From the NCBI GenBank assembly GCA_002633005.1, contig NMRA01000012.1, positions 736,571 to 800,570 of the forward strand: 64,000 bases of DNA. The letters are read 5' to 3'. Positions 27,888 through 60,597 of this stretch are shown here, one piece after another. Below the pieces are notes generated by a model, which was given only the letters and a program-made list of their open reading frames with translations, did no database searches and was not told the DNA's origin. How positions within the stretch are numbered: position 1 is the stretch's first letter; every line of letters starts with the position of its first letter. The DNA comes from Phoronis australis (Eukaryota; Animalia; Phoronida). The position numbers were made by a program, and so were the translations under genes.

Positions 27888-27955
27888 TCATGCACTCTCC
27901 CGATTTTCTACAAGCTCCATTGTTCCATGTGTGGCGTTCAACACAACCTGGTCTC
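27888..27955 (-). CDS. Dikinase-like gene terminal exon ([22 protein letters not shown])
   Basis: TTTTTTCAG acceptor; stop TGA. Confidence 0.88.

Positions 27956-60597: not shown

Follow-up and report, generated by a model that had tools for sequence, protein, structure and literature searches.

A predicted ATP-dependent dehydratase gene in Phoronis australis, combining an RPH-type dikinase with a 25-phosphosteroid-lyase-like barrel

The locus and its gene model

The window, a 64,000-nucleotide stretch of the Phoronis australis genome, carries on its minus strand a long, intron-rich gene. Its body (27888..60597), delimited by splice sites and RNA joints, is incomplete at the 5' end and consists of 34 exons per transcript, or 35 when the alternative exon 23 is counted. 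Independent reconstruction from the splice sites, from 60597 down to 27888, gives 3,720 nt encoding 1,239 residues followed by TGA, and the spliced 34-exon frame contains no internal stop. The original prediction of 34 exons in one open 1240-codon frame is thus reproduced, and all the ATP-grasp and other motifs that it quoted are found in the rebuilt protein; its gene model is sound with respect to the frame and fails with respect to completeness, since both the missing 5' end and the duplication of exon 23 had been overlooked. Thirty-two introns are of the GT-AG type and one is GC-AG, namely intron 12 (48211-49191, minus strand), whose own joint is absent among the RNA joints listed.

Transcription was assessed with stranded reads from three runs labelled with the same species, using approximately one-fifth of each run and covering exons 1-31. 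The exons are covered by reads on the expected strand, and among the joints listed, exact-size ones are present for introns 2, 3, 5-9, 13, 14, 16, 18, 19-21, 24-27, 29 and 30 (intron 9 by 2 reads). Together with one joint to the second copy of exon 23, these 20 introns bring RNA support to at least 21 of the 33 junctions, and the proposed RNA-seq check of the splice model is borne out to that extent. Among the 80 read variants listed, 20 were chosen as exonic, and 14 of these are synonymous. The locus is a live, spliced animal gene rather than contamination. A tandem array of 3.9 units of 73 bp (43059..43339) supplies, with its final unit, the acceptor and the first half of exon 20; three spare acceptor-like copies lie upstream of this exon, and the joint listed uses the last acceptor. 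No AATAAA or ATTAAA signal occurs within 1.5 kb after the stop codon.

At the 5' end, position 60597 is an AG acceptor rather than a start codon. In full-length homologues (1,310-1,360 aa), the match to exon 1 falls around residue 85-125, and an exon encoding the missing ~85-125 N-terminal residues was not found within the 64-kb window. An ATG frame at 62197 was rejected as the first exon, as it lies within a repeat that is read on both strands with many mismatches and has no match to the N-termini of homologues. A hydrophobic segment begins 82 of the 87 homologues with a full N-terminus (near-copies counted). The protein is therefore likely to be membrane-anchored, the anchor itself being seen in the homologues only, and its presence there points to a membrane substrate.

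Elsewhere in the window, positions 1-138 (minus strand) and approximately 10937-20873 (plus strand) resemble, respectively, DENR and the coiled-coil gene CCDC62, with no firm Pfam match. These two genes stand head to head in vertebrates. The segment at ~3000-4520 is an inverted duplicate of an open-frame segment, and positions 4350-4517 are reminiscent of the phospholipase loop that certain viral capsid proteins carry, with no Pfam support. Three repeat-derived frames, which we assume to be Tudor-like (62096-62341), retrotransposon pol-like (63400-63860) and endonuclease-like (18471-18647), have no Pfam matches; RNA reads map to both strands of the first two and contain many mismatches. An assembly gap of 553 N (6684-7236) falls outside the gene.

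The dikinase part

The ATP-grasp domain (44466..52667, minus strand), assigned with Pfam and by alignment to rifampin phosphotransferase (RPH), is encoded by exons 8-12 (52667-52487, 51766-51654, 50798-50635, 49924-49854, 49256-49192) and 13-18 (48210-48140, 47686-47610, 47052-46935, 45971-45871, 45392-45321, 44572-44466). Its residues K358, R459, T478 and E643 correspond to K22, R117, T136 and E297 of RPH. The RPH-type substrate-binding domain (30767..44145, minus strand), recognised by profile and alignment, follows in exons 19-30: exons 19-22 (44145-44073, 43115-43020, 42646-42479, 41870-41742), the duplicated exon 23 described below, and exons 24-30 (36158-36070, 35445-35383, 34899-34744, 33680-33577, 32608-32545, 31370-31207, 30845-30767). 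Within it, the motif R1029-E1030-x-x-K1033 (32545..32559, minus strand) aligns with R666, E667 and K670, which serve the second phosphotransfer in the RPH structure paper (PMC4844700). The phospho-His swivel domain and the stop codon occupy exons 31-34 (27888..30171, minus strand; 30171-30040, 29203-29101, 28315-28241, 27955-27888), as indicated by Pfam and alignment, with H1192 (29104-29102) in the place of RPH H825. The predicted order of ATP-grasp, substrate domain and C-terminal His is thus confirmed by the Pfam, profile and fold comparisons alike.

The window protein carries eight RPH residues unchanged (K22, R117, T136, E297, R666, E667, K670 and H825), and with the replacements of Q337 by E and T523 by S, all ten catalytic and phosphate-network positions are kept or conservatively changed. 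All 32 animal and all 64 bacterial rows have the second-site R/E/K/H set. When the family profile is compared with solved structures, RPH is the best match (E 7e-154), and PEP synthases match only over the ATP-grasp and His parts. The fold leads to the same neighbour: for the model of the Owenia fusion (49% identical, pLDDT 89), RPH is the closest solved structure by Foldseek (E 1e-39), so that the anticipated kinship to RPH holds by both approaches. Both structure models used in this work are those of homologues, the Owenia fusion and the paralogue P0035, rather than of the window protein itself.

The names given to such proteins in databases nevertheless deserve scrutiny. RPH being the closest solved structure, and automatic annotations being as they are, the protein could be taken for a true PEP synthase or a rifamycin-inactivating enzyme, which we regard as very improbable. 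As the original prediction stated, the pyruvate-binding barrel is absent: in the window, the stop codon follows the terminal His domain, no such Pfam domain occurs in the 17 homologues scanned, and pyruvate-barrel motifs gave chance matches only. Five animal homologues reach 363-412 bits with NCBIfam NF041857 (rph), against a cut-off of 999, and score far below the PEP synthase cut-off. Moreover, none of the 11 rifampin contacts (Q336, Y351, T354, P356, A357, M359, V368, L387, L478, F479, M673) is identical in the low-identity alignment.

A ligase or cyclase of the PigC/RedH type, in which phosphorylation would activate the substrate for substitution, cyclisation or condensation, possibly in the fused barrel, is also improbable. 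Some homologues are named PigC-like by RefSeq, window residues G691-E692 agree with PigC rather than RPH, and pericyclases are among the proteins that share the fold of the barrel. However, the PigC and RedH models give 327 and 310 bits against NCBIfam cut-offs of 1300 and 1350 (286-345 bits for the five homologues), PigC has an Arg at the position where the family and RPH carry K670, and no biosynthetic cluster surrounds the bacterial gene pairs discussed below. Judged by its sequence, the window protein is RPH-like in its working, yet it falls outside the rph, PigC, RedH and PEP synthase families.

The duplicated exon 23

Exon 23 is present in two copies, 23a (41312..41396) and 23b (38884..38968), both on the minus strand, 85 nt long and of phases 0/1. 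Copy 23a has an RNA joint to exon 24, observed in 9 reads (2 in run X1, 7 in X3, 0 in X2) that skip the homologous 23b; copy 23b, known from the sequence, is open and has AG/GT ends, and no joint to it is found among the RNA joints listed from about one-fifth of each of the three runs. Inclusion of either copy alone yields 1,240 codons, and the frame shifts if both are included (stop at 878) or neither is (stop at 858). The pair therefore consists of homologous neighbours of equal phases, one of which is required for the frame, as is characteristic of tandem mutually exclusive exons. Among the 34 exons, only this one has a second copy within the introns on either side (score 60 versus 17 or less), and the two copies score 34 and 41 bits with the family profile, while 22 other candidates reach at most -39. 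Homologues have a single segment of this type.

The copies agree at 10 of 28 residues and at 44 of 85 bases. Second codon positions are the most conserved (19 of 28 identical), and this excess suggests that selection has kept both copies. In the low-identity alignment, exon 23 corresponds to RPH 477-507, including L478 and F479, which orient rifampin in RPH (PMC4844700). The arrangement suggests mutually exclusive exons that exchange one pocket helix for another, and alternative use of 23b would give the enzyme two pocket shapes.

The N-terminal barrel

Exons 1-7 (53908..60597, minus strand; 60597-60341, 58799-58734, 58420-58307, 57316-57151, 55717-55665, 55123-54996, 54055-53908) encode residues 1 to ~312, which weak Pfam matches, the fold of a paralogue and profile searches assign to a double beta-barrel resembling 25-phosphosteroid lyase (25-PSL). 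The Pfam matches, to DUF7065 and DUF7064 on exons 4 and 7, are below cut-off. The stand-alone paralogue P0035 is 43% identical to the window barrel, and its AlphaFold model (pLDDT 95.9) consists of an N-terminal helix, a second helix and then an AttH-type double beta-barrel. Foldseek places 25-PSL (9FZN) at the top for this model (E 3.8e-13), above pericyclases, AttH and kievitone hydratase. By VIA, the superposition on 25-PSL has Z 21.8, rmsd 4.0, 274 aligned residues and 19% identity, the highest identity among the six chains with Z >8, yet the sixth rank by Z. Since AttH, Diels-Alderases and kievitone hydratase reach Z values of 23-26, at or above that of 25-PSL, the chemistry cannot be read from the fold by itself.

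Profiles built from animal barrels only give E values of 0.03 and 0.08 with 25-PSL, which are not significant; a profile of 13 animal barrels and 24 bacterial partners finds 25-PSL with E 1e-10 and nothing else below 0.8. The addition of four distant barrels lowers this to E 1.5e-30, an inflated value, some of the four being close to 25-PSL. The motif R178-D179-H-S181-F-G-V-R185 in exon 4 (57199..57222, minus strand) matches R175-D176-R-S178-W-G-V-R182 of 25-PSL. PDB entry 9G4C, by its title a complex containing phosphate and desmost-1,4-diene-3-one, has an Asn in place of D176, so D176 is probably a catalytic residue, disabled in that entry. No paper on the 25-PSL structure was found in the literature searched, and one could exist beyond openly accessible papers. 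The two Arg and the Ser that flank the motif Asp, as in 25-PSL, would be suited to binding phosphate.

These data bear on a reading with the order of events reversed, in which the barrel would be a hydratase of the kievitone hydratase/CrtC kind, hydrating a prenyl group to a tertiary alcohol that the dikinase would subsequently phosphorylate. Kievitone hydratase ranks equally high as a structural match (Z 23.1) and is the top barrel match of the fused Owenia model, whereas the profiles link the barrel to 25-PSL and not to hydratases, and the putative phosphate-binding residues are placed as in 25-PSL; we consider this order improbable. As for the earlier suggestion that the fused domain catalyses a second reaction, fold and profile support it by pointing to a lyase-like barrel, and both the PigC-type condensation and an inactivation of rifampin are less likely than phosphorylation followed by elimination.

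Distribution in animals and uncoupled halves

A full HMMER search returned 2,190 matches, the best 120 of which include molluscs, annelids, nemerteans, flatworms, priapulids, arthropods, echinoderms, hemichordates, amphioxus, tunicates, lamprey, cartilaginous fishes and a turtle; absences from this list carry no meaning. The family is therefore as wide among invertebrates as had been surmised, and extends to vertebrates. Word-based searches with single exons gave no matches, a limit of their sensitivity given the outcome of the HMMER search. Database names of these proteins are automatic ('rifampicin phosphotransferase-like', PEP synthase and, for some, PigC-like). In agreement with the expectation that no function had been characterised, no study of the animal protein was found in the openly accessible main texts searched, the sole mention there being one row of a table in an article on shrimp (PMC11011141).

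In the tree of 100 dikinase domains (FastTree only, midpoint-rooted, three references), the 33 animal rows form one clade (support 99) that roughly follows animal phylogeny and lies beside the enzymes of bacterial gene pairs. RPH and PigC are placed apart from this group, the PigC type on a long branch, and no donor is identifiable. This comparison of bacterial and animal homologues, which had been proposed as a check, thus sets the animal family apart from both named enzymes.

The two halves do not always persist together. Of 107 main-clade animal fusions, 79 retain the motif Asp, against 2 of 35 members of a divergent bivalve-associated clade, and the barrel motif is decayed in many arthropod copies; the dikinase residues are intact in both of these groups. 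A clade of stand-alone barrels spans several phyla. Motif decay beside an intact dikinase, together with stand-alone barrels, means that the halves can be uncoupled, and the persistence of either half without a working other half is the main evidence against tight coupling.

Birds have a 419-aa barrel-only protein (the P0044 cluster, chicken LOC776594), sister to the turtle fusion and with Ser for the motif Asp. The expanded bivalve-associated clade (P0238-P0298 from ENA, with P0279, P0281, P0284, P0286, P0292 and P0296) combines an intact dikinase with a decayed barrel motif. Its ENA members look intronless, judging from whole-ORF calls on long contigs. A bacterial origin of these proteins was rejected, as the three tested nest with bivalve paralogues in the tree.

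Bacterial gene pairs

The bacterial set consists of the best 80 of 577 loci retrieved by scanning species genomes. In 40 of these 80, a gene of its own (~340 aa), placed directly upstream of the dikinase, encodes the barrel, a proportion favoured by the selection because the query included part of the barrel. The two genes stand in the same order as the halves of the animal fusion, closely spaced or, in many cases, with the stop codon of the first overlapping the start of the second, and the paired barrels reach E values down to 1e-63 with the animal-only profile. Such pairs occur in Bacteroidota, Bacillota, Myxococcota and Spirochaetota, many of them in gut or sediment Bacteroidales and Bacillota; steroid genes were not seen nearby, and no other neighbour is common to more than 10 loci. 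A different barrel lies within 4 kb in 8 more of the 80 loci, and the two tested are close relatives of 25-PSL (E 2e-46 and 2e-74). Dikinases beside this second barrel type are found in actinobacteria, Halieaceae and others (L062, L072, L074, L077, L078, L080, L043 and L071), and some of these loci adjoin flavin monooxygenase, enoyl-CoA hydratase or alcohol dehydrogenase genes. The remaining 32 loci have no barrel gene, the upstream sequence being incomplete in approximately eight.

Across 37 bacterial partners, the motif R-D-H-S-x-G-x-R, H-Y-E-Q and two Glu hardly vary, if at all, as is expected of an active site, and the barrel motif is kept in most lophotrochozoan and deuterostome fusions. 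This conservation argues against a plain small-molecule dikinase that conjugates or detoxifies a lipophilic alcohol or phenol, in the manner of RPH or HpeHI, with a barrel that only binds or delivers the substrate. Such an enzyme would account for the dikinase residues staying invariant even where the barrel motif has decayed, for the bacterial loci in which no barrel gene accompanies the dikinase, and for a switchable pocket exon, which would fit a broad-range detoxifying activity; on balance it is a possible but unlikely explanation.

Proposed function

Taken together, the sequence data favour a fusion of an RPH-type dikinase with a 25-PSL-like barrel, likely membrane-anchored, that is predicted to act as an ATP-dependent dehydratase, probably on a lipid alcohol; we assign this reading a probability of roughly 0.55. 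The ATP-grasp domain would load the β-phosphate of ATP onto His1192, with release of AMP and Pi, as suggested by the conserved residues and the chemistry of RPH. The swivel domain would then bring the phosphate to a hydroxyl group held in the substrate domain, and the barrel, by homology to 25-PSL, would eliminate the phosphate and leave a C=C bond. That the lyase fold recurs with another kind of kinase, by fusion or in operons, suggests phosphorylation and elimination as by 25-hydroxysteroid kinase (25-HSK) and 25-PSL, with the dikinase providing more drive. The conserved RPH catalytic residues likewise support the original prediction of an enzyme that phosphorylates or activates a small molecule, possibly lipid-like.

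As to the substrate, a tertiary sterol or isoprenoid alcohol is the best guess, put forward tentatively. The tertiary phosphoester formed by 25-HSK, a one-bond kinase, is as energy-rich as ATP (Keq 0.34; PMC8449060), so the two phosphoanhydride bonds spent by a dikinase would suit such an ester. The full picture is more speculative still: bilaterians, including lampreys, sharks and turtles, might possess a membrane-anchored phospho-His dehydratase that converts tertiary sterol or isoprenoid alcohols (e.g. 25-hydroxysterols) into alkenes such as desmosterol, and P. australis might tune its range by mutually exclusive splicing of a pocket helix.

What is new here is the animal branch of the kinase-lyase fusion and the duplicated pocket exon. 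A bilaterian-wide family misnamed PEP synthase, PigC-like or rifampicin phosphotransferase thereby receives a testable function. If correct, the proposal would describe an animal lipid-modifying step built on bacterial-style phospho-histidine chemistry, and would concern the processing of dietary sterols, oxysterols or prenylated compounds in invertebrates. The bacterial form, encoded by two genes, can serve as a small soluble model, and the doubled exon 23 as a natural experiment on substrate choice.

Comparison with known systems

The closest precedent is found in Sterolibacterium denitrificans, where 25-HSK and the lyase dehydrate 25-hydroxysteroids to the Δ24 alkene (PMC8449060, PMC7411048, PMC11061730); the repair of NAD(P)H hydrates is the only other ATP-dependent dehydration known to the authors of PMC8449060. 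The phosphorylate-and-eliminate logic predicted here is that of 25-HSK and 25-PSL (PDB 9FZN, 9G2I, 9G4C), with a homologous barrel and a shared R-D-x-S-x-G-x-R motif. In contrast, 25-HSK is described as a separate 43 kDa ATP-to-ADP kinase without a phospho-enzyme (PMC8449060), whereas in the animal protein an RPH-type dikinase shares one chain with the barrel; the animal proteins are fusions with an N-terminal hydrophobic anchor in the homologues, and the identity of the barrels is only 16-19%.

RPH-Lm (PMC4844700; PDB 5HV1, 5FBS-U) has its domain order, fold and catalytic residues in common with the window protein, which differs in lacking the rifampin contacts and in carrying the extra barrel; the animal family, at 398 bits, is below the NCBIfam cut-off of 999. 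The prodiginine ligases PigC, RedH and HapC (PMC13534948) share the domain order, the His and the Arg, but the animal family falls far below their cut-offs, is separate in the tree and has no pyrrole pathway context. The Rv3169 family (NCBIfam NF053593) and Pfam DUF7064 and DUF7065 give weak, consistent matches of 30-40 bits to the barrel, below the NF053593 cut-off of 150, and these entries carry no function. Finally, the phenolic dikinases HpeHI, CreHI and PpsAB (PMC12167813) contain the same three modules and perform the same chemistry on small hydroxy compounds. Unlike the animal fusion, they are split, soluble and catabolic, and the accessible part of that report mentions no lyase barrel.
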